Assembly (NCBI GenBank): GCA_973895155.1
Contig: OZ316895.1
Coordinates: 8,358,184 to 8,422,183 of the forward strand
DNA: 64,000 bases
Direction of reading: 5' to 3'
From: Marsupella aquatica
Lineage: Eukaryota; Plantae; Marchantiophyta
The notes beneath the pieces are model-generated. The model did not search any database. It saw nothing but the letters and a program-made list of their open reading frames with translations, and was not told the origin of the DNA. The position numbers and the translations under genes are program-made. Below are positions 25,987 through 59,097 of the stretch, piece after piece. Every line of letters begins with the position of its first letter. Positions within the stretch are counted from its first letter, which is position 1.

Positions 25987-27463
25987 CACTCCTAACCCTA
26001 TCCTTCGTTCTTTGCCTAACGGCCCACATTCACTCACCTGCCCCTCCTGCTGCCACTGCCGGATTCTTTCACTTCAGGACTTTCTGCTGAGTCCCGTTGG
26101 CAGACCGTCTCATTACTTGGGGAGGCAGGCGGACGAGTGTAGAGAATTCACAGCACAGCAGAGGTCACCAAAGTGTCTCACCAGAATGTCTCAGCACGAA
26201 ACTGGACTCATGAGCAGAAATATGTTTCAGCCAGATTCAGCAGTTATCTGCGCTGGCTGAGCATTGAGCAGGTGAAAGAGCACTTAAGAAAGAATTCATC
26301 GCTGCAACCGGTGATTCGTTCATACTGCTCGGAAGAGCGCTCCAATCATATACCATCCCATACACAGGGAAATGCTCCACCAATTGGGAAGAGCTGGATC
26401 AAATTCCTCCCCGGCTAGAACACAATTCCTCTTCCAGCTAACTTGTGCATTACTGACTGTCACCAGTCATCATTCTCCACCCAATTGCTCAATCAGAAAC
26501 AGACAATGCCCGATTGCGAGATCTCAGGTCGTGAGGAAGGGAGAAACCCACACCCACCTGAGGAAGAGCACTGTCGAGTTTTGCCCACAAATTCCAATTC
26601 AACTGAGAATTCTCCGACGCCGCCCCTCTCGAAAGATCATAGCTCTAGCAACGGAACAACAATCTGATAGCGAGATCTCAGGTCGAAGGAAAGCATTAAT
26701 CCATTTGCCCCTAAATTCCAATCGAACTCAGATTTCTCCAAGTTTCTCCTCTTGAAAAACTCTCCTCTAGAAAAACTCAGACAGCCAATTACGGATCTAA
26801 TTCCAGCTGCCAAACTCCTCAGATAGTCTCCGAGGCAATGAGATGTGTGGCAAGTCTCCTGCTGAGACCAGTCGTTGAAACAAACAAAGAATGAGGTAAA
26901 GAGTAATTAACATTTGGAAGTTCTAGAATTGATGTATCACTGTTTTGCATTAAATGTTAGATTATTAGGGGTAGAGTTAGAGACTCTTGTAAATTTATAA
27001 ATAACAAGAAAATTACGCGTCACTGGGCATTTCATGTTCGTTGGATTTTATTTATCGATGGTGTAGATCGTGCAACGTGGGTTGTCACTCGTGTGATGGT
27101 TGAGAACACACGTGTGACTAACATGAAGAATATTGATCGTTTCTATGCACAAATGATACATGTTTTATGGTGCCAAATTCTAATCTAAACTTGGATAGTA
27201 CATAAGGCAAAAATGTGACAAGAATTATTTAGAACCATTGACAGTGTTTTATCAATGGTCAGCACTGTGTAAAGTGTACTTTGCTTTGTGGGCCACTTGA
27301 TCATTTTTGTCTGTCATTGATATGTGTTATTTTACATGTCACAATGCAGATTTATCTATCGTGTTTAGTGCAAGATCTTGAGCTGTTGGCACGCCACGAT
27401 CAACATTCCTGAGCTTTGCATTTTTGCGATAGATTGGTGAGAGGTAAATATTCTCTATGAGCT

Positions 27464-30400
27464 ATGTCTTTACTTTTATTAAACCTGCATCGGGAAATTG
27501 CGCGACAACAAACATTTAATCTGCAAAGGAATTCAACTAGACTGTCTGCAAGGCATTGGCCGAATGTTGATATCTTATGTAGGGAATGGAAGGGCCTATG
27601 TCAGAAAACCATTTGGAACATGGAAGTCTGTGGAAATTGTGGATTTGTATGTTATAGAAATAACTTAGAACGGAAATTGTTTGAAATTGTGCGTGTAGAT
27701 AGTACAGGAGTAGCTCCGTATGCATATTGTAATGCATTTCTAATACCTTACATACACGTTGATAACGTGCATTACAATATATGCATGGCTTGTGTAAAGG
27801 ATAGAGGTAGAGGAAGTCTATTATCCTTCATGTCACCTTCATATATTAGGTCTATTCCGGGGTCTATTCTAAAAGCAAAACCCCTGTATCTACAACTCTT
27901 ATCTTTAATAGATTGTGGATTGGGGATAATAAACAAGTTTAATGGGTTTCATTCAGGTTTTGTATGCAACGAGAGCTTACTAGATAGTCCACTTATTTGT
28001 TGGAATCTGGATACATTACAGTGTAATAATATTGGTATGATTATGAATCAGGTTTACGAGGTGTTTGCGACTAACTTGCTTGTTAACAAACTATTTAAAA
28101 GATATTTCTGTCTGCTTGAAACGTCGGATCCTTCACTTGGAGTTTGTATTCTAACACCTAATGCAGTGCACAATATCTTAGAAACGCAAAGAGAAACAAA
28201 GATTACAACTTATTCTATGACAGTCAATCCGTATGATCCAGATATTCAAATACTTCATGATGTGTCATATTCAATACCTATATCTAGGAAGCGTAAGTAT
28301 GATCTTTTTGAGTCTGGAAACCTGCACTGTAAGAATGCTTTATTACTATGAGAGCCAATGGTGACTAACGGGGACGGTGTGTCTGAAGACCACGATGTGA
28401 CATTGGAGACAACAATGTTTCCATTTTTATTCCCTTATCAACATGGTCATTACCGCGGTGGTATAACATTTGCTGAGTATATTAAGAGAATAACTCAACA
28501 ATTGTTTAGTCCATTTACATTGTACAAACCATATATGCTTATTAGTTACCAACTACGACAGTCGATACAGCTAGCTTCAATGACAAAAACTTATATATTA
28601 GATAAAGAGTATAATACACTTAGAAGCGTTAAACCAAACCTAACAGAAGAGGAAATTTTCCGATTGATGATAAAGCAGAATATATCATGCTCAGTCCCGG
28701 GTAGTCTAGGTTGGCATAGTCGTCATTTGAAGGACCTGATGTGCATGGTTCAGTACTGGGGTTTGCCTTCTTTTTTCCTCACTCTTACTTGTGATGACGT
28801 GAGCCCTACTAGATGGGTAGAGATTGATGACCTAGAGAAAGTTGTAAAGTATATCAATGCAACCTCAACATGGAAAGATTGTCCTGTAGAGTGTGCAATG
28901 ATATTCCATACCTGTGTTCAAAGTTTTCTGAGAAGGTACATTCTCTGCGGTGAAAATGGTGTCTTAGGAAAAGTGGAACATTACATTGCCCGGTATGAAT
29001 GCCAAGGTAGGAACTCTTTGCATGCACACATTCCGCCTTGGTGTACTTTAGATGATGTAGATAGGGTCAGTAGTGAGATCTGTGCATACATTCCAGCTCA
29101 TTTTGATGATAGTTCTGGTAAGTTTATTGAACAGTTTGATAACCCGATGACTAAATTATTGTATGGATATGTCACTTCAAAGCAACTGCATCGTTGCAAA
29201 GGAAGGAGTGTGTATTCATACTGATAGCGATACCGATTTACAATATTGTAAAATGGGTTTTTTGCATGAACCACACATGGAGAAGAGTCCTTCTATTGAC
29301 CCTCGAAGCGGAAAATGGCGATATTTTTGTCCAGGAGTGGAACACAGAAATGTTGTTCCATATCATCCTGTCATTTTATCATTGTGGGGTGCCCATATGA
29401 ACCTCCAAAGAGTGACAAATGAAGCATGGTCTTTCTACCTACTTAAATATGCTATCAAATGTGAACCAATGGGTTCATTGAATATTAATCTTGAAAATGC
29501 TAAGTCTTTAGGATTAGATGCATTGAGTCATACCCAGTTAAAGTTGGTTTCCAATGTTGTTCTGTCAAGATCTATTTCTTCTACAGAAGCAACACTAACG
29601 TGTTTACAAATTTCTACTATAGATAAATTATCATCGGTCACTCTTGTGGATTCCTCTCCACCAGATAGACGTACTTCTCTATATCGAAAAGCTTCGGTAG
29701 TCTATCTTCACCCTACCCAGGTATATGCTTTGAGACCTTTGAGGTTAGGAAACTTGTCATTCTATGAGTATTTTCGGAATTATGAAGTGTTGCCTGAGAA
29801 AAGTAGAGAAGCAGATTTTGTGGATGTAGACTTTCAAGGGAACTATGTGTTCACTACTACTAAGTTGGTATGCTTTTCAGACTTTCACCCTGTGTACCAT
29901 TCTAATCAATTTTTTTTATAATGTTCTTCAATCTTAGACATGTACATTTTCGGTCTGAAGTTGAGCTATTGCTTAGGACAGATTTTGATTGGACATATCT
30001 CCATGAATGTGTGTATCGGAAATTAATTAGTTGTGATATTAAGGATATAGAAAACCTGATATGTGATTACGTAGATAAACACCTATACTCTTCTCTGTAC
30101 AAAGCAGAGATGATTGTAAAAATTAAGAGTCGTATTCCACCCACATTGTGGGATGAATCATTTGCAGGTCCTTATGTAGTTTCAAATAGATCTTTAAGAC
30201 AATCTGAAGTTCAGACAACTACCATTAGACCACAACACTTGTCTTTAAGTGATTTTACTCTGACTTGTGATCAGTCAGAAGTGTTCTTGAAACTGAAATC
30301 TCAAAAGAGTGGTCTACATATGATTACAGGTTCCCCTGGAACAGGTAAAACCTTTTTTATGGGTTTTATGAAGAGCTATTGGGAGCAACAAGGAAAGAAC

Positions 30401-32233
30401 GTGCTTTTAACATCCACTACAGCAGTTGCTGCAATTAGACTAGATGCTTCGGCAACGACTGTCCATCATGCATTCAAAATACCAATTAGAGGAGCTTTAT
30501 TACCGTTGCATAGAAGTAATAGTATTTTTGATTCTTTGGCTTCTTCTCATGTTACAATTATTGATGAATGTAGCATGCTTACACCAAAAATCATGAAAAG
30601 CATAGCTTCATGATTGCATGAAGTTCTTCAAGGTAACGATCGCAAAAATGATCCATTTACAGTGAAGCTAATTGTTCTGGTAGGAGATATGTATCAATTG
30701 CCTCCTGTGTGTAATCATGAAACTAAGTATATATGTACTCAGTGTCATTTATCTTCGTATTCATTATACAAACATATGCAACGGTATCACTTGACATCTG
30801 TTATTCGTCAAGCATCTGACCCTCAATTCTTAACTTTCTTAAATTCTATCCGTCTAACTAATCCTAGTCAACATGCAATAGACGACTGCCTGCAACAATG
30901 TTTTCTCTGAACAAGAAGGATACAGATTTGTTGACGAGAATACTAAGATTATTTGTTCGCATAGAGATAACGTGGCTAAATATAATACAATGTGTTTACT
31001 AACTTTTTTTCCTATAGATCATATAGTAGAAGTTAATGTCCATACAAATGCTCCTGCTGAGAGTGGTCAAAAGCAATGGATCTCTGACACAAAGTTTCAT
31101 CAACTAACACATATAGCTATTGGTTGTAGAGTTTTATTGACTGACAATATTGATATTTCAAATGAAGCTGCTAACGGTAGTAGTGGAGAAGTACATGATT
31201 TGCTTTTTGATGAGAATGACTTGTCTACAATAATTGTTAAACTGCATATAGCATGCTCATCCTGGAACATGCTTTACTTTTTGTCTTGTAATGATATTAA
31301 GTGGACAAAATTAAAGAGTAAGACTAGAATACATATTAAATGTGAATGAAATCAAATAATATAAATAAAGTACATACAATAAAAGCACATAGTGACCAAT
31401 GGAAAGTACAATTTCATTACACAAAGTTGCTACGAGTTGTGCACAATGAAATCAAATAATATAAATAAAGCACATGCAATAAAAGCACATAGTGACCAAT
31501 GGAAAGTACATTTCTATTACACAAAGATCCTACGAGTTGTGCACGTATTTCAGTGTCTTATTAATGACTCTTATTCAATAAAAACCATAAACTTAGGAAA
31601 GAAAGCCACAAGGGGAGCTTAAGACAAAATGTGCTGACATTTCTTAGAATCATTCCTCTCACTCATGAGTATACTTAAAAGCGGTAGAAAATGAAACCCT
31701 TAGTTTCTCTCTAGGACTTAACAAAGTTTACAAATTAAGGGGGCTGCCAAAATAAATTCAAAACACTATAGAATACCAAAAATTTAAAGGGGTCCAAAAA
31801 TGAATCAAAGGTACATTAAAATAAAAATTCATGATACACAAATATGAATAAGACAAAACATGAGAGTTGGATTCACCATATAGTATAGCAGCTTCATAAA
31901 TCTAGCTTTTTGATGAGAATGACTTGTCTACAATAATTGTTAAACTGCATATAGTAACGGCAAACTAGTAAGAGTTGTGAGATCTTGTACTAAATACAAA
32001 AGAATCAAGAACATGATAGTTACCAGAAGTCAACATTTCCACTAATGTTAGGATATTCGATGACTGGACATAAATCACAAGGATGTACTTTAACTGAAAA
32101 AGTTCTGGTTGTGCTGACTGAAGCGTTTGCTCCTGGTCTAACATATGTGATGTTGAGTCGTGTTACAAATAGGAAGAATTTAAAAATTGTGGGTAAGTTA
32201 TCTCCTTTGGATTTTACTGTCTACAGAGAATGA
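27464..32233 (+). pseudogene. Helitron-type Rep/Pif1-helicase gene, disrupted by frameshifts, a stop and an insertion
   Basis: Rep motifs FPFLFP, WGLPSFFLTLT, ECQGRNSLHAH (HUH) and YLLKYAIK. Pif1 motifs GSPGTGKT, IIDECSM, GDMYQLPPV, IRQASDPQF, GYSMTGHKSQG and YVMLSRV. They are spread over consecutive ORF fragments. Confidence 0.92.
31252..31904. mobile_element. 653-bp insertion inside the helicase gene, flanked by 50-bp direct repeats
   Basis: gctttttgatgagaatgacttgtctacaataattgttaaactgcatatag occurs at 31202-31251 and 31905-31954. The insert is A-rich with an internal ~100-bp tandem duplication (~31345-31545). Confidence 0.85.
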
Positions 32234-32258
32234 GATGTAGTAAGTTGGGGAATGACAT

Positions 32259-33116
32259 GTGCAATCTTTTGAAATGGCACCAAAGAGGAACTTGCACAAC
32301 ATAGAGATCTTGAAAGCAATTGAGAATGTTGTTTTCAATTACGGAAATGGTACACAACAATCTCCAGTCAACTTGGCATCTGAATTGTCGCCTGAAGTGA
32401 AAGTAAGAGCAACGGCAACAGAACACGGAACCCCGATAGCCGAAGAGTTTTTACGAATGATCCTTGTTGATATCAAGGATGAAGACACAGAAGATAAAGG
32501 GGAGGAACCAATGAAGGAGCCTACACCAAAACAAATTTGTTATGCAGATTCATTGGGGATAGAGATGACAGAGTGGGAAGGTGGTATAAGTGTGAAAGGC
32601 ATGAGTCCTCTCATTGAAGCTAAAAAGGAATGGCAACAAATGTTTTTGGATATGCATGGAGAGTATCCAGCATGTGGTATGAATCTTACTTTCTAAATTG
32701 TTTAGCTATATATACATGGCAAATTCTTTTTACTAGATTATATAATGTGTGATTCTTATGTACATCTGGACTTGTGTGCAAGCATTGTAAAAGAATGTCT
32801 ACGTTACAAACATGTTTCATTTGATAATGAAACACTGACAAGGAAAGAGAGCATGAAAATACTTAAATGTCATACAAGAGGAGCAGCGATAGATCAGTTG
32901 AGACAGCTACATCATTCATTCAAAGTACCTGTGGACATTTTGGTCAATTTGGCAGCAAACCAGACAGGGAAAGTCATTGCTCGAATGAACAACAAACGAG
33001 ATGCAGGTGCATTACGAGATATTCCTAAGCGTTTTTTGTTTGATGATGGTGCTACTTCTAGCTTTCCTGGAAGTATTAAGATAGAAGTATCTCCAGGAAA
33101 ATGTAAATGTACATAG
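32259..33116 (+). CDS. Two short hypothetical ORFs (32259-32696 and 32745-33116) directly downstream of Rep/Hel
   Basis: Stop-free 145 and 123 aa ORFs in AT-rich DNA, co-oriented and closely packed after the helicase. No recognised domain. Confidence 0.35.
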
Positions 33117-33229
33117 AACACATACGTTTTAACTACATGTAGTGTTATGTGGATGCTATCATAAGCATGAGACTATTTGCTACTTTAATTTGTGGAGATC
33201 AGCACACAAAAAACATTTCACCACACTAT

Positions 33230-34446
33230 ATATTGTACTACCTTTTAAGTACATGACTAATTTGGTGACAGAAAAAGTAATTGCTTGAGTGAATAGTCCA
33301 TGCTAAATTCCATGGCAAAGTGGTCCCGGATGACCATGTAGTAGTGTTGTTGAATATAGTGATTGTATCTGATTGTAATTTGTCATTTCCGAATAGAGAC
33401 GATGATCCACCTCAGGAAATAATTGCAGATGCAGTAGGATCTTTTGTGCTCTGGCCATCAAAGTGTGTTAGTCTGTAGTGACTGAATGCAAGTGTAGTTA
33501 GAATCAAGTGAATTGTGTCACATTTTGACATTGCCTTGGAAAGATCCAAGAAATATCTGTACCAATTTTTCCATTTGGTAAAGAGGATGAAGGAGCCATT
33601 GTGTGTGACATTGATATTTCTGAATTCTGTATGTATGAAACAAGTGATTGATGTGTGTGACATTGATATTTCTGAATTCTGTATGTATGAAACAAGTGAT
33701 TGATGTGTGTGACATTGATAGTTCTGAATTCTGTATGTATGAAACAAGTGATTGATGTCAAACTATAGCTCTATGGTGATTGTCTATGATACTTGAATCT
33801 GTTTTGTATCATTTCAGTATTAGTGTGTATGGTATAGAGGAATACTTTGTGACCTTCTTTGTAGTCTATGATGTTTGAATCTGTGAATTCATATTAGTGT
33901 ACATGGTATAGAAGATGGCTTTCTGAAACTCTGAGTTCTAATGTTAACATGATGAATGGTGAGCTTATAGAGTGAGTTCATTCCAAGTACACAATAAAAT
34001 ATGAATGGAATGTGTTATTTGTGCACAAGAGTGAGTTCATTCCAAGTAGTATAGTGGGGTCTTCATCACTCATATCCAGTTGACATGAAAGACTTATACA
34101 TACCCCACAAAGTGTTTACTTTAGTCATTTTATAAACCCACAAAGTATATTTAAAGACTACCCTCCATAACCTTTCTAGTCGTTCCCAACGACTCACCAT
34201 CGCAGCCTATAAAAAACTGAAAACGACTCACCAAAGCTACCCACACAAAGACTACAATAGACTGAAAATCCAGTCTATTAAACGACTTACAAACCAGTTC
34301 TATAAAGGACTCAGTTGATTATAGTAACAAAACATACGACTCGCAGTCCTGTAAAGGACTGGAGTCCTTCCCAATCGTTTCCAAGTCCTATACGGTACTG
34401 AATAGTCGTTTAATGGGGTCTAAATACCCCCCAGTTTCTACTAGTG
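33230..34446 (+). mobile_element. 3' end of a CACTA (En/Spm) transposon
   Basis: Translation near 33300-33478 gives AKFHGKVVPDDHVVV...FPNRDDDPPQEIIADAVGSFVLWPSKCV*, a Tnp1/En/Spm ORF2-type C-terminal domain. Subterminal (AC)GACTC-type repeats lie at 34150-34410. The terminus tttctactagtg is the reverse complement of CACTAGTAGAAA. Confidence 0.72.
33601..33758. repeat. 52-bp tandem repeat, 3 copies
   Basis: gtgtgtgacattgatatttctgaattctgtatgtatgaaacaagtgattgat occurs three times with one substitution. Confidence 0.95.
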
Positions 34447-34954
34447 CTATGACAATTATATCTTTGTGAGACAATCTAGATTACTGCATTTTGAGTAGTA
34501 CTGTGAATTTGATTGGACTGTTAATTTAAATGTGTTTCAGGTGAAGAATCTGGTTGCAATTCATGTCACAGTAGTGTTATGACTATTTATAGCATGAATA
34601 CTAGTACTCAAACTGAATGCATAGACAATCCAAGAATTCATCGTAGTGGGCTAGTCAGCGGAGGTTGTGAAGGAAAAGCCATGTATCGATGGAAATATGA
34701 TCGGTTGTTGAAAATGTTTTTCAAGCCAACATTCCAGGAAGAAGAGGCTCGTATGGAACTTTTGGAAGAGCTTTGGGATGTTTATCAAATAGTTGAGAAT
34801 AGAAGTTGTCAAAAATGTAGTGCAAAATAGACTGAAAAAAATGTTTTTAATCATTTGTAAAGGTCTAGCAATGTTAAGTTTTGATGATCACTACTAGAGA
34901 CTACAAAGAAATCATTTTTGAAAGATTTATAAGTGGATGTACAATCTAACAAAT

Positions 34955-36350
34955 TTAAGCATTTCTATGATTCCTTTGTAACAATCTATCCAGTTTTTTA
35001 TTTATTGTAAGAGCACCTACATAAGTGGCATTACTAGTTGAGCTCCTGTATGCCATGCCATGTACAACATCACTACGGAAAGCAAAGAGGTTGCCATCTT
35101 CAATTCCCAGACGCATTCCATATTCAGGAATTACAAATCGATTGGCAAAATTGTTGAATCTGGATGACTAGCATAACATAATGTAAACTCTGTCGTGTCT
35201 TCATCTTCGTGCATTTTGGTGCAGAAATCTTTGCTGATGTAAAGTTGATAAGAGCTTGGCCCTTTACTTTTCAATTCTTTCTCAAAAAATGACATATCGT
35301 GGTCTTCAGGAGCAAGATATTGGTGGGAGTATTTGAAATAACTTTCCAACACTGTAGGGCACCACCACATATAGAGAGCCAAAATGATGTTGACAAGCTC
35401 AAGATGAGAGTACTTATCAACTAAATCCTCAAAAGCGGAAGTCATGGATTGTACACAGTCTGTTAAGAGATGCCTGATTTTTGTTTTGTGAGTATAAAAA
35501 GATACTCTTTTGGACTTGTATGGATTATCAAAAGGACCAAATCCTGTCATGTAACTCTCGATGATGCCTTGTTTTTTTCCCCTTTTAATCTCGTAATGTG
35601 AATCAAATAAGGAAACTAATAAACTTTGAATGAAACTCATAGTTTCACATGATAGTTTTTGATGGCGTACAACCACTGCTATAAGATAAGGCTTGGATCC
35701 TGACCTATCGTAAAAATATGTACAGTTACGGGTTTTGTCCATAATCACAAAATCATTAGGGAAATCCCTAAATATAAACCCAACATTAGCAGAGGAAGAA
35801 CTAGTCTTCTTACCATTCCATGTTCCAAGGATGCACCCTTGTAATGTGCAACATGAGAGGAAGAGATACGATGGACAATTACTTCTACTTTAGAAAACAA
35901 ACTACTTGTAGCACAAGAGGCTTCTTGAACTTTTCTCATAGTTTGAAGTTTTCTTTGAGTATAGTGAGAAAACATTCCAATGAACTGACATATGGGTTTT
36001 GGTAAGTTCAACCTACATTGATGATTGGAAAAAATTTCATCAATTTCTTTCCATGTATCCGGACAGAACATAGGAACTTCATTTTGTCTTTCCTTGCAAT
36101 TTTTATACCCATTCTAAAGTATAGCTTTGGAAAACTTTGAGGATCTATTGAGCGTGATATTGAGTACTTTTGTAACAAAAAGTACAAGAACTTTTTCGTC
36201 TCTTAGAATCCAAGACAATGCAAACCTTTCTTTTCCAAAGTGCAATTTGCTCAAGTATACCCAAATTTGAACAAATAAATTAATAGAGAAATCATCTCCC
36301 CATGCTTCACATTTATTTTCAATCAGGTGAGTTTTTTTTCGTTTGACCAT
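34955..36350 (-). pseudogene. TET/JBP-like 2OG-Fe(II) dioxygenase gene, disrupted (one in-frame stop, about two frameshifts)
   Basis: Reconstructed C-terminus ...YMTGFG...SFY...QLYISKDFCTKMHEDEDTTEFTLCY...(frameshift ~35150)...FANRFVIPEYGMRLGIEDGNLFAFRSDVVHGMAY...TYVGALTINKKL...*. The HxD His is at 35209-35211 and the distal His at 35060-35062. Confidence 0.62.
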
Positions 36351-36380
36351 CTGCAAGAAAACAAAAATTATTAAGTTCAT

Positions 36381-36672
36381 AAAGTTACAACTTGGGTCAA
36401 ACAAGACGCCAACTCTTACAGATGTGTGTACAAGAATGATTTAATTTGTACCTTTAAAAAAAAATTAAAACATATATTTTTAGGTTTGTAAAGTTACAAC
36501 GCGGGTCAAACAGTACACCGACCCTTTTGGATGTGTGTACCGGAATGCCTTAATTTGTAACTTTTCATAGTTTTTCTCAAACATATTTTTTAGGTTTGTA
36601 AAGTTACAGCTGAGGTCAAACAGTACACCGACCCTTTCGGATGTGTGTACCAGAATGCCTTGATTTGTAACT
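36381..36672. repeat. Three ~110-bp tandem units with internal inverted repeats
   Basis: Units begin aaagttaca at 36381, 36490 and 36600, contain ggtcaaaca..gatgtgtgtac and end tttgta(ac). Confidence 0.85.
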
Positions 36673-38760
36673 AAGTTTTAGAATTTTTTCAAACTCTACT
36701 ATAAGATAAAGCATAGATACATGTTTGAAAAAATTCTAACTCTACTATATAAAGACATACCTGGGCAATAAACACGAACGATTGACGAGAGAGTGCTCTG
36801 ATCCCAATTGGGCGTGAAGACGGTGCTCTGAAGAGAACTTAAGTAAGTAGCACAAACAGTTACATGAACCCTTTCACAAGCAGTAAACCCTTGCCTGCTG
36901 CAAGTAATTGGAAAGGTCTTATGTATGCGTAAGTAAGCACTACTAATTGAACCCTCCGTGACCATTTGTCATTCCCTTGATCCCAAACTAACTGTAATGA
37001 GCGGCAAATCCTCTTCCATCGCGGGTAATATATGTACTCTTTCTGCAATTCTGCTAAGTCAGTCGCACATGGTTCATTGGAAAGTTGACAGCCTCTCACA
37101 AGGACTATCCACGGTTGCTATCAATTCAAAATTAATAGCTGATGGCGGAAACCATGCACCTAGGTAAGTGTTGTGCAATAGGTACAGCCGAGTTGGTCAA
37201 CTGGTGTTAAATTAAGTTCAATTATGTCACTCCAATGACAAAGTATTCCAGCACCGTTTCAAGCGATGTTTAATTTCATTCACTTATGAATGAAGTCGCT
37301 TCGAAAACAATCAACAACAACTTTTTGAAATATGAGTCTACGTCATTAGATACTGTATTGGGAATACCTTGCCAGGTTCTTAAGTTTCAAAGCCATTTAA
37401 TTTGAAGACACTGACTTTCGACACTAACTAACGCACTAGCCTGTACTCTCGAATAAGTGACACTGATGTGCAAGTACAACTTATATTCAGGGCTGGACTC
37501 TGAGTCAAAAATAATTTGAGGACTGTCGGACATAGCTCAGATGCGGTCCAGATAACACTGCACAAACATAAATATTAGCACTCTCATCTGTTGAGGGAGC
37601 AGCAACACCGATCAAACGGATAGGAAGTTCAGACACTGGAGGTGTGAGGAAACACAGAGATTCGATTGTCCACATGTTAGACAAATTTCCACTAAGGATC
37701 TACTGGAATTTAACGGGAGCAAATACTTCAACGGGAGCAAATGGAAGCTAGTTGTAAAGTTAAAACCACAAAATGATATATTAGATAAAGCGTACAACAA
37801 GGAGATCGAGGTTCATTCCGTCGAGGCTGAAATTGGTCTTAAACCTGTCAATAGTAGATTTTGATCAATTGCATGGATCATAGATTTCCAATTAGGATTC
37901 CCAATAGGATAGCCTGAGAAGAACAATAGCCCTCCCTTTTCCACTGGACTTGAGGATAATCATAAAAAGAGCAGGATGACAACTACAGGTTTGAGTGAAC
38001 CCTATGTTGGTGCATCGTAGAGATGTAGCGCAGGAAGGTTGCCTTTCAATCATCCAATCACTTTTTGATGGATCATTCCATTCCAAAAATGTTCTTCGCA
38101 CAATCATACAATTGATACAGAGCAGTATTCTCATAGTATGAGAAAAAAACTTACAGAGTTTGCTTGTAGGGTGTATGACTATAGGCCCACGATGTAGGCT
38201 ATAGGTCAGCTCGCTTTTCCATTGAAAGTTGAAAGGCACGGTCAGCATAATCCCCTTGAAACCGGCGGTGATGATTCTGCTCCAGTCAATACCGGAATTC
38301 AATGGAGATTCCACAGACACTTGAGGCACAAACTTTATAACAAACGGACTACAGAAAATTTAGATAGTGCAGTAGTAGACCATGAAGAGAACAGTGAGCT
38401 CCAATTTCAACGAAGCAAACATGAAAACAAAGAATCGCAAAGATTGAGCACAAAATCAAGAAAAGATACGGCTGCTCAGATTCCTGAGAAGGAGTTTATG
38501 GATCTCGAAACCCTAGAGAAAAGCCCTCATAGACCTAAAGAATGGTTCTGGAAACTCTGATGGGCACAATCGGACCCAACAATAACACAAAGGCCCTCTG
38601 TCAAGAGAACAATGTTACTTGATAGGACTCTTGAGTTTTGGGGTACGTTGATTGAAACTCTATCATGGTCAATCAACGGTTTGGATCACTCAGGGGTACT
38701 ATGGAGCAACACTTTTCTTTTGGGGGCCCATCAACCAAACGGGCAACCAAATACCCCTAA

Positions 38761-39060
38761 ATTGTGCTATGGAGCATAGTTTGATGTGTGTATTATCACC
38801 CATCGACACAAAGGTTTGACAACATGCCCCCATGGAATCACAGCACGGGGAAAATTTGGTGCTATGAGTCCATGTAAGCATCTTGTCAAAAGTAAGTATA
38901 GAAATTATAAATTGTGTTAAAGAGCATAGTTTGATGAGTGGATTATCACTCATAGACACAAAGGTTGACAAGATGCCCCTATGGAATCGTAGAACCCTGA
39001 TAATCTGGTTTTGTGAGCCCATCTAAGCATCTTGTCAATGTTATATATAGTGTTATGGAG
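38761..39060. repeat. Degenerate ~150-bp tandem duplication
   Basis: attgtg..gagcatagtttgatg..gattatcac.cat.gacacaaagg...atgcccc.atggaatc...aagcatcttgtcaa occurs at 38761 and 38911. Confidence 0.8.
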
Positions 39061-39842
39061 TCTAATTTTCTCTAGTGTTCTTGGAACCCTGAAGAAAAGC
39101 CCCCATAGATGTACAAGGTTGGTTCTGGATATTGTTTGCATATATCAGTTTGGGGAGCAGGTTAGTGAAAACGTTCATCCAAAGCTCTTTTATGGTTGAA
39201 TTGGATGGCGGTAGTAGGCTAGCAAAGATGGGAAGAGCCCTCACACACAAATTAAGGAGGCCAGGTGAGCAATTGGATAGTACGGGTTTGTCTAAAACAT
39301 GCTAACAAAGAAATGGTGGGTTGACTAAAACCCAACCATACCTTGACTCCTTTGTGCAGGCCTTTTGCAAATATTTAGAAAAAAATAATTACTATTTTGG
39401 AAGGGGGGCACAATAGGCAAACAAAGCCCAAAATGCCAATCAAATTGTAAAGCAAAAGTTGAAAGATAGTCTACAATATACCACACAGCCTGAGTGTAAA
39501 TTAACAATGAAATTACTTTGCTAACCTTTATGATTATGGCCATCCAGGAAATGTTGTCTGGGCATCTTAACCCTAAATTAATCCCAATAATCACTTTCCT
39601 CAAATGTTATTTGTACAAAACAAGTAATGCCAATTGTAGAGTCCAGCTGATAGAAATGATAATTCTATTTGAAATGACACCAGTTTGCAATTGATTGATG
39701 TTTGCAATTGATTGATGTTTGCAATTTATTGATGTTAAGGTCACAATTGGGGTCAAATTCCACCTCACTGACAAGTGTTAGCCACTTTGGGCAAAAAATG
39801 ATCCAGGCTTTTTTTCTTGGATTAGCCAGTTTGTCACCTTGT

Positions 39843-40160
39843 CAGAGACCCCATTAGCTGAAATCTAACAATTATCCTTTATTAATTTTTCACCTAGCAA
39901 CAGACCCCATTAGTCAAAATCTGCCAGCTATCCTTTAAATCTCCCTACCCCATTAGCCCAAAACTAACAATTATCCTTTACTACTTTTTCACCTAGCAAC
40001 AGACCCCATTAGTCAAATCTGCCAGTTATCCTTTAAATCTCCCTTTACCCCATTAGCCCAAAACTAACAATTATCCTTTACTACTTTTTGTTCTAGCCAC
40101 AGACCCCGTTAGTCACAATCTGCCAGTTATCCTTTTAACTCTAGGGAGATATAACTCTCA
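39843..40160. repeat. Array of short subterminal-type repeats (agaccccattag / acaattatcctt)
   Basis: About six alternating copies, ending in ctagggagatataactctc. A related terminal sequence occurs at ~49048-49110. Confidence 0.7.
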
Positions 40161-40694
40161 GAAATTAATCTAAGAAATCATCCTTCACACAAGGTGACAT
40201 AGGCCACCTTCGCGAAAAAGGAAAAACCTTAAAATATACTCTGGCACGCGTCTCCCTACCCCACAAAATACAGAGTATTATCTTCAACCCTGAGAGATAA
40301 AACCCTGAGCACAGACCGGTTGGGCAGGTTGGGCATGTTGGGCATGTCCGAGCCAAACAGAGCACTACAGAATCGGCATGCTCACACTGAACCGCCACAG
40401 GCAAATTCTCTTGCTGCGCAGCAGATCGAACAAACTGGAGAATTGGCTGTAGAGTGGACTCCTGGAGCATCCGGATCAACCAATATTTCATTCGGCTAAA
40501 CACCATCTTCGTGGGAGACGCCATGAAATGAATTTGTGTTTTGGTCTGACAGAGATTCATCGATGTGGGGAGCCGATGCCTCGCATTGTGTAGAACCCAG
40601 GCTGCATTTTCGTTCATGCTGGGACGAGGCTGATGCCAGGAATTTGATGGGTTTCCTCCTGGTAGGAATGTGAGATAGGCGAGAGAATTTTACC

Positions 40695-42711
40695 ATGGAT
40701 TGCATTACCTGCTGCAGCTCAGCGACCGCCGTCAGCCCTTCTTCTCTCCAAGCGTCTGTGGTGTTCGAAGACTGTTCCTCATCTATGATCTGCTCCGTGG
40801 CCTCCCTCCGTTCTGGAGGAAGCTCGAGATTCCCAGAGAGGTATTTGGGGAGCTCGCTACATTTCAGGAATGTCAGTAGTTCTTCTTTGAGAACCTCTGC
40901 AATTTTTTCTTCCTCTGCTCCTCTAGTTGTGCGCAGCGACGCTTTGCAAACACACGATTTCCCCTCTCCTAATCCAAGAGATGAGGATAGCGGCTCTCAG
41001 AATTTGTCTGCAAAGGAGAGAAGGAAGTTGAGGAATGAAAGACGAGAAGCAGCGAAGCTTGCCCAAGAGGTGCCATGGAGGGAGGTGGTGCAGGATAGAT
41101 TGCTAGAGAAAAAGAAGAAGATTAGAAGCTGGCAAGAGGATGCTGATATCAATCTGTGTATTGCCAAAGGTGTCCAGTGGTGGATGATACAGACTACTAG
41201 ACGGTATGAGTTTGATGTCGCCGAGCAGATAGAGATAATATTCCCGGAAGAATTTCCAGGAAGGGAATTTCAGGTGCGTCCTTCGGATTTCCTAGCATTA
41301 CCACCTTTAAACGCTTTCTTTGATTTATTTCGACCTTACATGCTGGGAGTATGGAGTCCATTTGAAATGCTTGGTCAAGAGATGCCTAAAGAATTCGAAG
41401 AGATTGTCGGCATGATCGTTGCATTTGTCATCGAATAATTCTGATTTTGGAAATTCATGATCGTTACCTAGGCAATAAAGTCTAATAAACCTTGTAGATA
41501 TTCCTCCAGGATGATTTGCTATGTTCTTTGATGTGGTCTTGATCGATACATTTGATACAAACCTGAACCTCCAGAACTTCTTCCATGGGGTTGTTTTCGA
41601 GGTCAAGCACAAGGATGCCTAAGGCTGTAGTTTCAGAGATTTATTTGCTAAAAGACCTTCTCTTGATGGTATTCAGGTACTTGTACCAACAGTGCCAGTG
41701 ACGACAAAGTTGAAAGACGGAAGTGTGTCTCAAGCAAGAAAGAAACTGTACGAGGGCATTGTGCTGCTGCGGTGTCTTCTTGACCGTGACGTCTATTTCA
41801 TGGTCAAAAAAATACCGCGTGCTTATGAGTTCTTCGGGACCCAGGCAGGTCTGAGGTATGGTGAAAGGATGTCCAACCTGTCAATTGTGTGTCTCAAGGG
41901 CACGAAGTTTTTCATGTGAAGTCGACAAGGCTTGCGAGTCAGCCTCTCGTGTTGAGTAAAACCAATGGTTGAGTGTACTCTGTACAGGAATTACTTATTA
42001 ACCTCAGGGTAACTGAATGTGTTGTTTTCGTTATGTGTGTGTCTGCATAAGGTTCCGTGACTTCCATTCGGACCACCGTGAGGTTTGCGTAACTTGGGGG
42101 GCACTAGGAAAACTCCTATCATTGCTGTGATTTTGCAGCTTACAGTTGGATCCTTCGGTTATATCTTTGTTGTACAGCTTGCAGCCGATAGTCATGCCTG
42201 CACCCGTGTCAAATTTCAACATGGAGATCATGATCGAAAAGATCCGGAAGCAAGAGGAAGAGTATGAGGAATTCAAGGAACAATGTAGGATAGAACTTGA
42301 AGAGCAGAGGAAAGAGAAAAAGAGGAAGGACGAAGAGCAGAAGCGAAGAGATGTGGAACAGGAAATTCTGAAGGCAAAGGGTCTGGTACTTACAATCGGT
42401 TCTACTGTCAGGGTGTTGTCAGGCCCCTTCCTGGACTTCACAGGGGTAGTGATTGAGCTTCTACCTCAAAAGAAGGTGAGGTTCTAGAGACACGTATTCC
42501 ATCATATTCACCTGGTCGTCTTCTTTGTTGGAGCACTTTGTCTGGTGCACAAGGCTGGATCTTTTGAATAACGCCTCTCCTTTATTGATCGCAGATTAAA
42601 GCCATCGTGACTGTTTTTGGAAATGACACACTGATTGTGTTAGACATAGGGGAAGTGGCCGTCGAAGCTGCTGCAAGTGACCAAAAAAGGGGAATGACGT
42701 ACAAAGCTTGA
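40695..42711 (+). CDS. PTAC13: Plastid NusG-family protein (plastid transcriptionally active chromosome 13), ~390 aa. Exons 40695-41273, 41677-41855, 42178-42475, 42595-42711
   Basis: Ser-rich transit peptide, SAKERRKLRNERRE, NGN domain (GVQWWMIQT...FP..EFQVLVP...KLKDGS...KKLYEG) and KOW motif GSTVRVLSGPFLDFTGVV...VTVFG. The spliced frame totals 1173 nt. Confidence 0.88.
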
Positions 42712-52468: not shown

Positions 52469-52834
52469 TTAACCCCTCGCACATCGGGTGATTGCAGAAC
52501 ATCCCCTTTGATACGGTCGGACTGGTCCAGAGGCGGACCGGCAGTTCGGCGTGTAGTAAGGCCTTCCAGATTGCGGTGGACATGGAACATTACCTGCCGT
52601 TAACGCACCATACCCAATGTACGCACCGGAACCTGCGAGAACCCTCCTGGTGCTTGCATCGGACTGACCTCTACTGCTCCAGGCCCATGAGAGATCAGCC
52701 GAAGAAGAGGCCGACGATAACCAGCCCAAATCAGCTCGCGCCCTGTCTACGACGACGGCGAGAAAGAGCACAGAGAAGAACACGACCACGCATACATTCA
52801 CTCGTCGGCCCGTCAGCCCATTGTTTGGTCCCAT
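52469..52834 (-). CDS. RALF: RALF (rapid alkalinization factor) peptide precursor, 121 aa, intronless
   Basis: Hydrophobic signal peptide, RRVL (S1P site), YIGY motif, VPC...YY..NC....GPV.PY.RGCSAITRC with four conserved Cys. Confidence 0.93.
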   Translation of the reverse strand: MGPNNGLTGRRVNVCVVVFFSVLFLAVVVDRARADLGWLSSASSSADLSWAWSSRGQSDASTRRVLAGSGAYIGYGALTAGNVPCPPQSGRPYYTPNCRSASGPVRPYQRGCSAITRCARG

Positions 52835-55409
52835 AATGCCTCGCCCCAGCGATCAGATCAGGCCAACTTTGCCGCTCCTGCTGACCGGCTGCTGATCTTC
52901 TTCTTATGAACGCCGTGCGCGCACTGAACTGATCACTTGCGCTTCACCTGACTCACTCCCTAAAGAGAATCCCAGACTGCTGGATGCACCGACGAGAAAC
53001 ACAGAATCGAAATGCCTATCGGCAAGAGTTCGCACCAGGCGCATGCGTGCGGACGACAACTGAACTGAACAGAGAAGAGAAGAGCAACCTCTTGAACCTC
53101 TAGGAAGTCCACGAAACAATGAATCCAGCCGCCGTTGGTGGCAGTGATTTTGACCTGGAGCTAGTTCCTGAGAATGACCATCTCATTCCTGACCAGGATC
53201 ATGCTACGTCCTGAGAACGAGCAAAAATGTAGCTAATAAGCCGAGTGCGCGTCCCCCTCCTCCTCCGGTGCTGCTGCCACTGGAGCTAGCAGCTGTAGCT
53301 AGCGACTCAAATGCAGCTTGACCGAGTCGATGATCTCCGTAATCGACAGGAAAGTTCAGGACTTCAGGAGGAGGCCCACTCAATTCAATCAAGCCAGCCG
53401 GAAGACGCGCCGCGATGGAGGCCTCATCTCGAACGCCACAAACAAAACAGTAGTGGAGGAGTGCTGGATTGTTGGTGGCTTGTTGGTTGCATTGAGTGAT
53501 TGCCTCGCCTCCTTGAGTCCTTGCCGACCGCACCTCCTCGGACTTCATCTACGTACCTCATGAATCATGATTACTGTTCGAAAACGCAAATGCCCGCCAG
53601 CCATGCTGCAGCAGTGCAGCTGCAGTTGCTATCAATGCGGGACGACGGAGGTCGGAGGAGGGCGAAGGGTCACCGACTCATCACCGGTGTTTTGGATGGA
53701 GGATGCTGCGGCCGTATCGCGGCAGACTGTGAGGACTGAGGACTGAGGACTGACTCATCCGAGGAAGCACTCGATCCAATATAATAATAATGCGGGTCTC
53801 AAATCTCAAATATGTTTTCCCGCTCCTAGTAACTAGCCCTATTACCCTTTACTATATTTCAAACTGAGAACCGGGTCATGTCTCAGGCGAAAAATCATTA
53901 CAAAAATTCCTTCATTTTGTTTAATTTTTGTTTTTTGTCCACGGCTCATTTCAGTTTTGTCTTTGTATATAGTGTCACTTTTACCTATCCTCATTTAAAG
54001 TTTTGTCCTTATTGAAACTCACTATCAATTTTGTCTACTTATTAGGAGTCCAGGTCTAGAGGTTTCACTCTAGACCTAGGCCCTGAAGAGTAGGCTTTAG
54101 TTTGATCTTTCATAATAAGCTTTTTAATTCTAGGAAAACCCAATTTTGGAGAGCATGTTTTCTCACTCCTACACGTAGTTTTAATCTTAGGGAAACTAAT
54201 TTTGGAGGTATTAGCCTCACTGCCCCTTATCTGCAAAGTGAATACAGGTGAGCTATGGGATTCCCCTTTCCCCAATTTTGGATGTACTAGCCAGACTACC
54301 CATTCTCTGAAAATGAAAATGAAGAGAGGTGAGCTATGGGAGTGAAGCACACAAGAACTTCAATGGGGAGGAGCACAGGACACAACAGATGTGGAATAGA
54401 GGAGCACAGCACACAGCCCCGTACCCTAAACTCAATTCCCAATTTTCAGTACACTTTTTTCACCCACACTCCCAAAGCACCCCAAACTTAAGTGACACCC
54501 TCAGAACTACGGTCTTGAGACTTCAGTCTAGACCATGGCCCTGGAAAGTAGCTTCTCTCCACGCTTTATTCATAAGATTTGTTTGATAGTCCACTAAACC
54601 AAACTTTGCTCCTGAACAACCCAATGAGGTTTTGGGTATGTTGATTAAAGGTCTATCAACTCTTTGGGTCTCTTAGGATTCCCTTTGAGTAATATTTTTC
54701 ATTTTGGGGGTCTACCAAGCATATACATTTTCAATTCTGGGCAAACTTTAATCAGGGTTTTTGGGAGCAAGCACAATCTTGCACGAGCCATATCCTAAGA
54801 TCTATATGTGTTATGTAGGTGTCACATGGCTGTCTTCGGGGTCATGCGGTGCTCAAGGTACTGCTACAGGATCTGCATTAATTCCAATACTTTTATTTAT
54901 ATACATTTGCACATGTTATGATGACACCCAAATGTAAGACATGTGCATTGTTTAGCAAACACATCTTTCTGAACCTGAATGGTCCGAATGCAGCAATGTG
55001 CTGACAACTACTCTTTAAGATCTCTAGGTTTAGAGCATCTCCAGCGGAGCCCCCAAACAGCCCGTAAACACCAAACCATTGAGTAGATCGGGTTTTACAG
55101 AAACCAGTCTCCAGCGGTTGCGCCATCCGTATTTTTTTAGCGGATGCCGCTACTTTTGCCAACTCCGCGCCGCTACTTTCGCGCATGAAGGAGGTCGCCA
55201 TTTGAAGCCCCTCCGCCAGCCCCCAAAGTGATCAATGTTGGTAATCGGCCCACACGGCACTCGCAATGTGCAGGCTTCACCGCTCGCGCCAGAATATGAA
55301 CTCTTTCCCGCTTGGACTGTCAATGAACAGTTCTCGTGGGCCAGGACATATCGTGCAAAATTGACATTGCACACGAGGACTCCATTGAGATTGTGTGTAC
55401 CTTGCTCTG

Positions 55410-57499: not shown

Positions 57500-59097
57500 C
57501 CAGACCCTCTTCAATTCCAAAGGTGGTCAACAATGTCATTTCTTAGACAAAAATGGTTGGCCTTGTTGTTAATTTCAGTTGTTGCAGCAAGGAACTCCAA
57601 CCACGACAAATTTCCCCTATTGACTCTTGCAGCACTAATTCTTAAATATAGAGGGAAATTATCATCCCTTTCATCCTCAATATTAATCATATTGTGAAGG
57701 ATGACACATGCAAGTAGAATGCTAACAATGTTTTTTTTTCATACCAAGACCGTGCAGGCCTCTTCACCTCGGGGGGTTGACTATCAAAAATCTTAGGAAC
57801 CACGTGCAATCCAAAATAGGTATTTTTGGCAGATTTTAACTAAATTTTAAAAAAGTGTAGGAGGCAAAAGAAGGTATTATAAACTCATGTTTATAGAATA
57901 TTCTTTAACATATACCTTTTATAAAGTAAAATAGGTTATTAATATTGAAAATAAAGAATATTCTTGGAATATTTTCTTTATAAAATAGGTCTATTTATAT
58001 TAGGCTAGGATCGCACGTGGTACCCCAAAATATACACTTAGTTAATCCCCCGAGCTCTTCACTATCTTAAATCTAGCTTGGAGTACCCCAAAAGCCCTCT
58101 CCACATCATTCCTTGCTGCTTCTTGGTACCTTGCAAAATGCTTCAACTTCTCAGATTGTGGCATGTGCACAGTGGATATGAACATAGACCACTCAGGATA
58201 AATTCCATCAACCAAAAGATAAGCTTGTTTGTACTCTGTACCAATCACATGGAAACTGACATTGGCTGAATCATTACGCAACCATTCATCTAGAAGTGGT
58301 GAGCGGTCAAGGACATTGAGATCATTGTTTCCCCCAGCCAGTCCAAAAATGGCATGCCAAATCCACAATTCTTGATCAGCAATGGCCTCCAAGATGATGG
58401 ACTTATTCTTGAATGTCCTTGTCAGTGTATTGGCCTTGCCAAGCAACAAGGCAATTCTTCCATGCCCAGTGCATGCAATCCAATGAGCCAAACAGGAAAA
58501 CCTCTATCTACATTAATTTGAAGATGATTCTGGAAATCTTCAGTAGTTGGCTTCCTCAAATAGTGACTCATACAATTCTCTAATGGCTTTCACAAAGCGA
58601 TACAGAGACTCCAATGCTGTGCTTTCACCAATTCTACAATACTTGTCCAAAGCATCCGCCCCAATTTGATAAGCTAATTGCCTCAATGTTGCAGTCAATT
58701 TTTGATGCGGAGACAAGCCTACTTTCCCTGCAGCATCAACCTTCAGGCAAAAGTAAGTGTCATGTGCACACACATCAACAAGAATTTTTCTAAACAAACT
58801 GCTACTCATTCTGAATCTCCTCCAAAATTTCAACTCGTCATAGGTTGGACTAGCGGAAAAATAATCATTCCAGAGGTCTTCTGCCTCCTTTTCTTTACGC
58901 CTCTCCACATTCTCACTCCTGCCTGGCCCAGACCCTCTGTGCTTTCTTTTCCTGGGGTGCCTGGAAAAATTTGCAGTAGCAAGGGGTCCACTGAACATCA
59001 TCAACTCCCAAAATCTTTGTTCCTCATCCCATTCAGCCTTCTCCTCTTCGAATTCTTCATCGAGATCCGCCAACCATCTTTCCAGTTGCTCCATCAT
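57500..59097 (-). pseudogene. Harbinger/PIF DDE transposase, frameshifted and MITE-interrupted
   Basis: LWNDYF, FWRRFRMS, DAAGKVGLS, LRQLAY, ILEAIADQELWIWHA.FG..G.NNDLNVL, YLLVDGIYP, DVERAFGVLQARF. Confidence 0.9.
57768..58054. mobile_element. 287-bp MITE with an 8-bp TSD, inserted in the Harbinger transposase
   Basis: TIRs ctcggggggttgacta / tagttaatcccccgag, with inner inverted accacgtgcaatcc / ggatcgcacgtggt. TSD ctcttcac at 57760-57767 and 58055-58062. Removal restores KIVKRPARSWYE. Confidence 0.9.

Follow-up and report, generated by a model that had tools for sequence, protein, structure and literature searches.

A Multi-Copy Land-Plant Helitron and Its Likely Cargo, a Gene for a TET/JBP-Like Dioxygenase

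In a 64,000-nucleotide stretch of Marsupella aquatica contig OZ316895.1 (the window), we examined a Helitron-type element of ~13.3 kb that lies at 26904-40177 on the + strand, with both ends approximate. On balance, we regard it as a decayed copy of a multi-copy land-plant Helitron, with a TET/JBP-type enzyme as its likely cargo that would oxidize 5-methylcytosine (5mC) and so act against silencing. The RepHel transposase gene and the TET-like gene lie in one repeated block. An initial annotation, made from the sequence of the window, had proposed a Helitron carrying a TET/JBP-like cargo gene, and this is supported by the shared repeated block and by the finding of no other carrier.

The RepHel gene (27464-32233, + strand) is intronless and is broken in the window copy; it was delimited using Pfam, motif positions and tblastn with the protein P0037. 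Pfam matches were obtained to PF14214 (Helitron_like_N; E = 3.4e-22) and to PIF1 (E = 2.9e-12 and 3.5e-7). A search among longer proteins gave seven matches to the Rep piece, of which the best was P0037, an intact protein of 1346 amino acids (aa) whose residues 11-1346 cover the window gene in five main pieces at 58-75% identity (tblastn). These E-values and the near-full-length alignment bear out the Rep/Pif1 gene annotated on the + strand. Rep motif 1 is at 28772, the HUH motif at 29015-29032, YxxKY at 29436-29450, Walker A at 30329 and Walker B at 30560, and the C-terminal helicase motifs were also found. The window gene thus combines in one RepHel the three features that define the Helitron superfamily, i.e., HUH, a catalytic Tyr motif and a Pif1 helicase. 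Seven breaks interrupt it: stops at 28349 and 30611, frameshifts near 29198, 29920 and 30906, a 705-bp insert, and a break near 31950-32018.

The Rep motifs of the window gene have what we take to be the look of Helitron2 (HLE2). DUF6570, a marker of Helitron2 (PMC11417382), was not matched in the window piece or in the seven relatives. The latter (P0037-P0043) form a compact intronless RepHel group, with full-length members of 1346-1393 aa and an N-terminal Cys cluster.

The TET/JBP-like dioxygenase gene had been annotated on the − strand, and it does run from 36350 to 34955 on that strand (~465 codons), with the relative P0003 matching it at E = 6e-83 (tblastn); no intron was needed to align its relatives. 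The window copy is broken by a stop at 36114-36116 and by frameshifts near 35838 and 35140. The gene is arranged tail to tail with a predicted orphan gene described below, with 124 bp between them. When the largest piece of the TET-like gene was compared exhaustively by HMMER with 1.84 billion representative proteins, 29 proteins were returned at E values up to 0.001, four of them at ≤1e-30; the 19 of these that were looked up, together with P0002, derive from contigs of 1-4 kb in Logan, JGI or ENA (in one case also NCBI). Intact relatives of 427-459 aa can be aligned to the greater part of the window gene, including an extra N-terminal region of ~170 aa that is conserved in the family and was modelled at low confidence. 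Judged from these sequence comparisons, the dioxygenase is a member of a conserved, previously unannotated family.

Searches of existing collections gave little for this family. There was no Pfam match in four pieces of the window gene, PF12851 (Tet_JBP) not reaching the cut-off, and no match to PF13532 (AlkB-type). Searches of PDB sequences with two pieces and two family profiles yielded no dioxygenase, nor did CMD1 match at the sequence level. Nothing for the family came from PHROGs, NCBIfam or phage tblastn, and when the TET core was used in a word-index search of proteins, one match near its own length was obtained and none among longer proteins. Tet_JBP and 2OG-FeII_Oxy_6 were assigned to ESM Atlas neighbors at 0.92-0.94, but recognition was below threshold and the lead is a weak one. 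Loci related to the TET-like gene or to RepHel were not found in viral contigs, and none was found in prokaryote genomes; the one related locus came from a short metagenome contig (L001), in which positions 533-1835 encode a near-complete family member with one frameshift near 1562. A family tree of 15 rows, with long branches and no outgroup, contained two well-supported groups. P0017, P0036, P0021 and P0031 form a separate well-supported group, with 20-25% identity to the group of the window gene.

The window copy being broken, structures were modelled for two intact relatives, P0003 (pLDDT 63.1) and P0005 (pLDDT 77.5, pTM 0.74). With the P0003 model, five CMD1 entries ranked first in Foldseek, and VIA-align gave Z scores of 12.6 with TET2, 12.3 with NgTET1, 12.1 with CMD1 and 11.5 with AlkB. 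With the P0005 model, all Foldseek rows listed to rank 21 were CcTET, CMD1 or TET2, and VIA-align against TET2 gave a Z score of 16.1 (root-mean-square deviation 3.9, 229 aligned), followed by CMD1 (13.9), NgTET1 (13.6) and AlkB (13.3), with CcTET at 11.8. A fold search of BFVD returned unnamed, phage or giant-virus oxygenases, and one named JBP1/TET at rank 4. The relatives are predicted from these models to have the TET-type double-stranded beta-helix fold.

The predicted active site was examined in a 27-row family alignment, residues being counted over the rows that reach each position. In the iron triad, the His of the HxD motif was present in 20/20 rows, the Asp in 19/20 and the distal His in 14/16, and all three are present in the window copy. 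A second Asp two residues after the HxD Asp occurred in 19/20 rows, an upstream Arg in 14/14 and a final Asn in 12/12. None of 20 rows had Glu at the position of the HxD Asp, which would give the HxE hallmark of the PE type of fungal TET proteins. In the window, HxDxD lies at 35197-35211, the distal His within 35045-35068 and the last strand at 35000-35023.

Evidence that the two genes are repeated together came from six public sequencing runs (X1-X6), from three organisms, that contain parts of the block. Four runs were compared with the window over 24.5-41.5 kb at 80% identity and two over 36.4-40.7 kb at 88%; these comparisons covered all runs except X2, 57% of X1 was used, and bins over two high-copy insertions were excluded. 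Because contig depth is no copy number, depth was taken to mean "repeated, and repeated together", and not as counts. X1 and X3 contain the flanks of the element without any difference from the window. Relative to flank, the median bin depth in X1 was 13x over RepHel, 31x over the orphan gene, 37x over the TET-like gene and 20x downstream, and in X3 the corresponding values were 3.8x, 4.7x, 3.2x and 7.1x. Single contigs of X3 had depths of 111-157 on RepHel and 130-143 on the TET-like gene. Multi-copy cover was continuous over ~26.9-40.2 kb and fell to flank level after ~40.2 kb in X3 and X4. An X3 contig joins the helicase to exon 1 of the orphan gene, and an X1 contig spans intron 1.

The light decay of both genes had initially been read as a sign of co-insertion. 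Both are lightly broken, as described, but in a single copy this is a weak sign by itself, and the reads provide better evidence. In the rows listed, other copies differ from the window at no fewer than three of the seven RepHel breaks (stop 28349, frameshift 29198 and the 705-bp insert), and at no fewer than two of the three breaks in the TET-like gene (stop 36115 and frameshift 35838); four of these five sites differ at full depth. One X1 contig (depth 105) joins 29386 to 31161, skipping 1774 bp of RepHel. This joint could represent an internally deleted derivative, in which the cargo genes could be retained.

The limits of the element were set by steps in depth at both sides in X1, X3 and X4, which place the 5′ end within 26874-26972 and the 3′ end at ~40173-40177. 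A contig of unique flank stops at 26903, four X3 contigs continue past 40177 into dissimilar sequence, and in eight X3 contigs a related terminal motif follows a single repeat unit. The AT-rich block of the initial annotation was confirmed, with a GC content of 0.31-0.38 over 27-37 kb versus 0.44-0.56 just upstream, but its proposed end at 38600 was too early, since the multi-copy cover continues to ~40177.

The 3′ subterminal region (39848-40177, + strand) contains three 100-bp repeats, a candidate 8-bp inverted repeat (40136-40143), a weak hairpin (40144-40159; −0.8 kcal/mol) and CTAA at 40170-40173. In Helitron1, the 5′ end is TC, a 3′ hairpin lies 10-12 nt before CTRR, and insertion occurs between A and T. 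The hairpin 10 nt before CTAA is Helitron1-like, but CTAA is followed by G, and a scan for CTRR followed by T listed no site at the 3′ boundary. The candidate 5′ inverted repeat (26972-26979, + strand), which forms part of a small hairpin (26972-26987), pairs with 40136-40143 in the layout of Helitron2, in which asymmetric inverted repeats of 8-15 bp with hairpins occur at both ends (PMC3627910). This pairing is not statistically supported, with 125/500 shuffles scoring equally, and the multi-copy cover begins to the left of 26972. None of seven terminal-repeat comparisons was significant (56-331 of 500 shuffles as good).

Directly upstream of the start codon of the TET-like gene are three 110-bp tandem repeats (36358-36685). 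This array and the 100-bp array (39848-40135) have three units each in the window, and the number of units differs among copies. Both are possible candidates for binding sites of an element-encoded factor.

The remaining multi-copy interior (36700-38600) was assessed by depth and by a stop-density test, and contains at most an open reading frame (ORF) remnant at 37892-38560, on a strand that is unclear. The initial annotation had placed another decayed ORF on the − strand. A deficit of stops does exist, confined to 37890-38560 (3/300 shuffles as low), but the + strand is nearly as open, with five stops versus four on the − strand; stop density over 36700-37960 was at the level of chance (211/300 shuffles), and the region had no Pfam match. 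Masking sites at which other copies differ opened no long ORF in 36650-38700.

The orphan gene (32274-34830, + strand) is predicted to have three exons (32274-32676, 32737-33102 and 34541-34830), encoding 352 aa in an open frame. It had been annotated as two orphan ORFs and a separate short ORF at 34579-34830; we instead read these as exons of one predicted gene, in which GT-AG junctions join three ORFs without a stop. The product has a Cys-rich C-terminus, and its pieces had no match in Pfam or PHROGs. The frame is still open although the neighboring RepHel and TET-like genes are both broken. Our guess would be that this gene encodes a second cargo factor, perhaps for targeting.

Two later arrivals interrupt the window copy. 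Within intron 2 of the orphan gene is a 5′-truncated CACTA remnant (33299-34446, + strand) with one terminal repeat at 34435-34446, which corresponds to the intervening CACTA fragment of the initial annotation. Its depth in X1 was 36,000-41,000, and contigs bypass it from 33298 to 34447 (X3, depth 92) or from 33292 to 34480 (X1 and X3). It is a later insertion, without a role as carrier of the TET-like gene. We considered and rejected CACTA as the carrier: between the CACTA end at 34446 and the gene there are 508 bp, and the CACTA piece is absent from other copies. The second interruption is a 705-bp insertion in the helicase (31246-31950), bounded by a 50-bp direct repeat and present in very high copy (depth 4,000-8,600), and in X3 a contig with a depth of 143 runs directly from 31245 to 31951. 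The right part of the insertion terminates in CTAG near 31904, with many contigs departing from it at 31883. Possibly the insertion is a non-autonomous element of small size, whose duplication would be unusually long.

Several observations weigh against a Helitron carrying a TET/JBP-type enzyme as cargo. Both termini are only approximately placed. Among the contigs listed, none covers RepHel and the TET-like gene together, and none crosses the 124 bp that separate the latter from exon 3 of the orphan gene, so this last link is drawn from depth. The TET bins of X5 do not differ in depth from the flanks, and in X6 (organism C), RepHel-like contigs have a median depth of 122, with TET bins at 34, 0 and 4 and downstream bins at <2. 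The X6 depths suggest that related Helitrons in organism C either have no such cargo or have a version with less than 80% identity. For none of the 29 relatives could a neighboring RepHel gene be shown, and L001, the one locus retrieved, is at 1884 bp too short for this. As for the enzyme, the Pfam TET models fell below the cut-off for all members (the best being PF20515 at E = 0.15, in 1 of 27), and at the register inferred from CMD1 spacing the distal co-substrate Arg and the base-stacking aromatic residue were each present in 0/12 rows. With the P0005 model, the Z score for AlkB (13.3) ties with those for CMD1 and NgTET1; because it is within one Z unit of them, the TET assignment draws on the lead of TET2, the longer aligned lengths and the order of the Foldseek matches. 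Finally, the CpG value of the TET-like gene is 0.39, against 0.58-0.68 in three host genes, which shows that the family still underwent methylation-driven decay and that any protection has been incomplete.

The points on linkage bear on the possibility that the block is composite. The 34.9-40.2 kb half, with the TET-like gene, would then be a separate repeat beside or inside the Helitron, co-amplified by chance or by segmental duplication. The approximate termini and the uncrossed 124 bp would fit such an arrangement, as would the TET depth in X1, which is ~2-3 times that of RepHel, the near absence of the right half from the RepHel relatives of organism C, and the two nested insertions in the window copy. 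However, depth was matched in X3, and cover was continuous from 32 to 40 kb, without a dip, in X1, X3 and X4, while copies with an internal deletion, such as that joining 29386 to 31161 in X1, can explain the lower RepHel depth. The case that the dioxygenase belongs to a distinct element (CACTA, KDZ or other) having ends of its own, named in the initial annotation as one that would overturn its proposal, was tested and not found. Pfam detected no DDE transposase domain in the block, and a search for an 11-bp terminal inverted repeat plus a 3-10 bp duplication enclosing the TET-like gene, with the left arm in 34447-34960, found none. The flanks past 40177 are varied, and the same layout is documented in fungi. 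We consider a composite block improbable.

It is somewhat less improbable, though still unlikely, that the gene is cargo of the Helitron but has a chemistry other than the usual 5hmC, 5fC and 5caC series, i.e., that it forms an ascorbate-based bulky 5mC adduct like CMD1, or acts on thymine, N6-methyladenine (6mA) or RNA. In TET2 and NgTET1, 2-oxoglutarate is bound by a pair of Arg residues, whereas in CMD1 the second Arg points away and ascorbate is used (PMC7854593). Thirteen residues after the distal His (register inferred from spacing), where the Arg of CMD1 cannot hold 2-oxoglutarate, the family has Tyr in 10/12 rows and Arg in 0/12, with I, V, T or L in 12/12 six residues further on, the position of the base-stacking aromatic residue. 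Two residues after the distal His there is Thr in 9/15 rows, like Thr399 of CMD1. CMD1 was the top Foldseek match for the P0003 model and the second for the P0005 model, and Kojima allows that fungal TET proteins of the PU and PE types may have further activities (PMC12730594). On the other side, there is no sequence-level match to CMD1, the window copy has Met and not Thr at that position, and TET2 was the best VIA-align match. An Arg five residues after the distal His (10/12 rows) could replace the missing distal Arg. Moreover, loss of the distal Arg is not special to CMD1, because, in Kojima's Table S1 (10 rows, compared by eye), it is also missing from most fungal proteins of the PU and PE types.

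Least probable, in our view, is that the gene is a captured passenger with no remaining benefit to the element. That the window copy is dead and depleted in CpG would be in keeping with this, but the iron triad is intact in the window and in relatives at 20-25% identity, and most copies in the runs are without two of the three TET breaks.

Rolling-circle copying is established for Helitrons, and RepHel would very probably copy the whole 13-kb unit in this manner. Returning to the reading that we prefer, a Helitron with an anti-silencing cargo enzyme, intact copies would probably make the dioxygenase, which would flip out 5mC and oxidize its methyl group. Methylation maintenance and methylation readers would then fail, or base-excision repair would restore cytosine, and RepHel would stay transcribed. 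The anti-silencing steps from expression onward are derived from fold, conservation and precedent. More tentatively, we suggest that the plant Helitron TET/JBP family may be intact and active in some copies, where it might write an oxidized or ascorbate-derived cytosine mark, providing demethylation apart from the ROS1/DME glycosylases; at present we lean somewhat against this.

The genes flanking the element point, by their sequences, to a land-plant nucleus. They include a RALF peptide gene (52472-52852; PF05498, E = 3.3e-19), RALF being a mark of land plants, together with an F-box gene, a P450, a Plant_tran transposase, a copia element, a nuclear NusG/KOW gene and a piece of an inositol monophosphatase gene. 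The F-box gene begins ~800 bp before the 5′ end of the element, on the opposite strand. The host NusG/KOW gene (40674-42484), whose product is probably plastid-targeted, starts ~500 bp past the 3′ end. Further away are the copia gag-pol piece (2-1729) and a Harbinger-type transposase with a partner ORF (58042-59133).

The initial annotation presented the pairing of a Helitron with a TET/JBP gene as a new system, but it has already been described, in fungi (PMC12730594) and in Chlamydomonas (bioRxiv 10.64898/2026.10.09.758095). In fungi, TET/JBP genes occur in 11 transposon lineages, including Helitron1 and Helitron2, with function untested (Kojima, 2025; PMC12730594); the Helitron1 elements are from Puccinia graminis (a rust) and Pezizales, and those of Helitron2 from Agaricus and Laccaria (Agaricales). 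The non-fragment entries listed are 8.6-15.4 kb, compared with ~13.3 kb here, and like our element they combine RepHel with TET/JBP cargo. The same anti-silencing role is proposed for both. By eye, the family resembles five PU rows of Table S1 around HxD and in the last strand, and the PE type ahead of the distal His. It differs from the fungal TETs in having HxD rather than the PE hallmark HxE, in falling below the cut-off for PF20515 and PF12851, and in the extra N-terminus of ~170 aa, while the element differs from the fungal ones in its land-plant host and in the orphan three-exon gene.

In Chlamydomonas reinhardtii, 8/11 TET genes are part of a Helitron, and a viral TET has been tied to low 5mC (bioRxiv 10.64898/2026.10.09.758095); CMD1-like proteins have been placed in green algae (PMC11065753). 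These systems resemble ours as green-lineage Helitrons with TET cargo, in a predicted fold near that of CMD1 and, at the inferred register, in having no working distal Arg. In contrast to Chlamydomonas CMD1, the present family has no detectable sequence similarity to that enzyme, and its host is a land plant, not a chlorophyte. Human TET2, Naegleria NgTET1 and Coprinopsis CcTET share with it the predicted fold (Z scores of 16.1, 13.6 and 11.8), the HxD...H triad and, by a presumed equivalence, an acidic residue just after HxD, at which Asp350 of CMD1 reads cytosine, but are only 8-14% identical, and the distal Arg and base-stacking aromatic residue are absent here at the inferred register.

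Two other systems invite comparison. VANC, from Arabidopsis VANDAL (MuDR) elements, is likewise an anti-silencing factor encoded by a plant transposon, that role being inferred for our element (PMC5735166, PMC10398659). It is, however, a sequence-specific DNA-binding factor of a cut-and-paste element, whereas here a base-oxidizing enzyme is predicted in a rolling-circle element. Some HLE2 Helitrons carry 2OG-FeII_Oxy_2 (AlkB-type) proteins, so that they too have a 2OG-Fe(II) oxygenase as cargo in a separate ORF (HELIANO, PMC11417382). The family described here differs in lacking a PF13532 match, and in the structural comparisons with the predicted models TET proteins outrank AlkB.

Reports of 5-hydroxymethylcytosine in plants have been contradictory. 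According to PMC4291460, Arabidopsis and other plants have no known TET homologues. Searches directed at land plants or at the pairing in the open literature, which leaves aside most subscription papers, Repbase and the appendix of the preprint, turned up no land-plant transposon described as bearing a TET gene. The pairing itself being known, the land-plant host and the divergent enzyme family appear to be the new parts. That Pfam misses this dioxygenase family may explain why it stayed unnoticed, and, with its co-substrate pocket altered, the enzyme has a chemistry that deserves testing, given that the algal relative CMD1 makes a new base. If our reading is correct, it would provide a named candidate enzyme for land plants, which have been stated to have no known TET homologues, and would extend the strategy of TET as cargo from fungi and green algae to land plants. 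It would also add an enzymatic route of anti-silencing beside the plant factor VANC.

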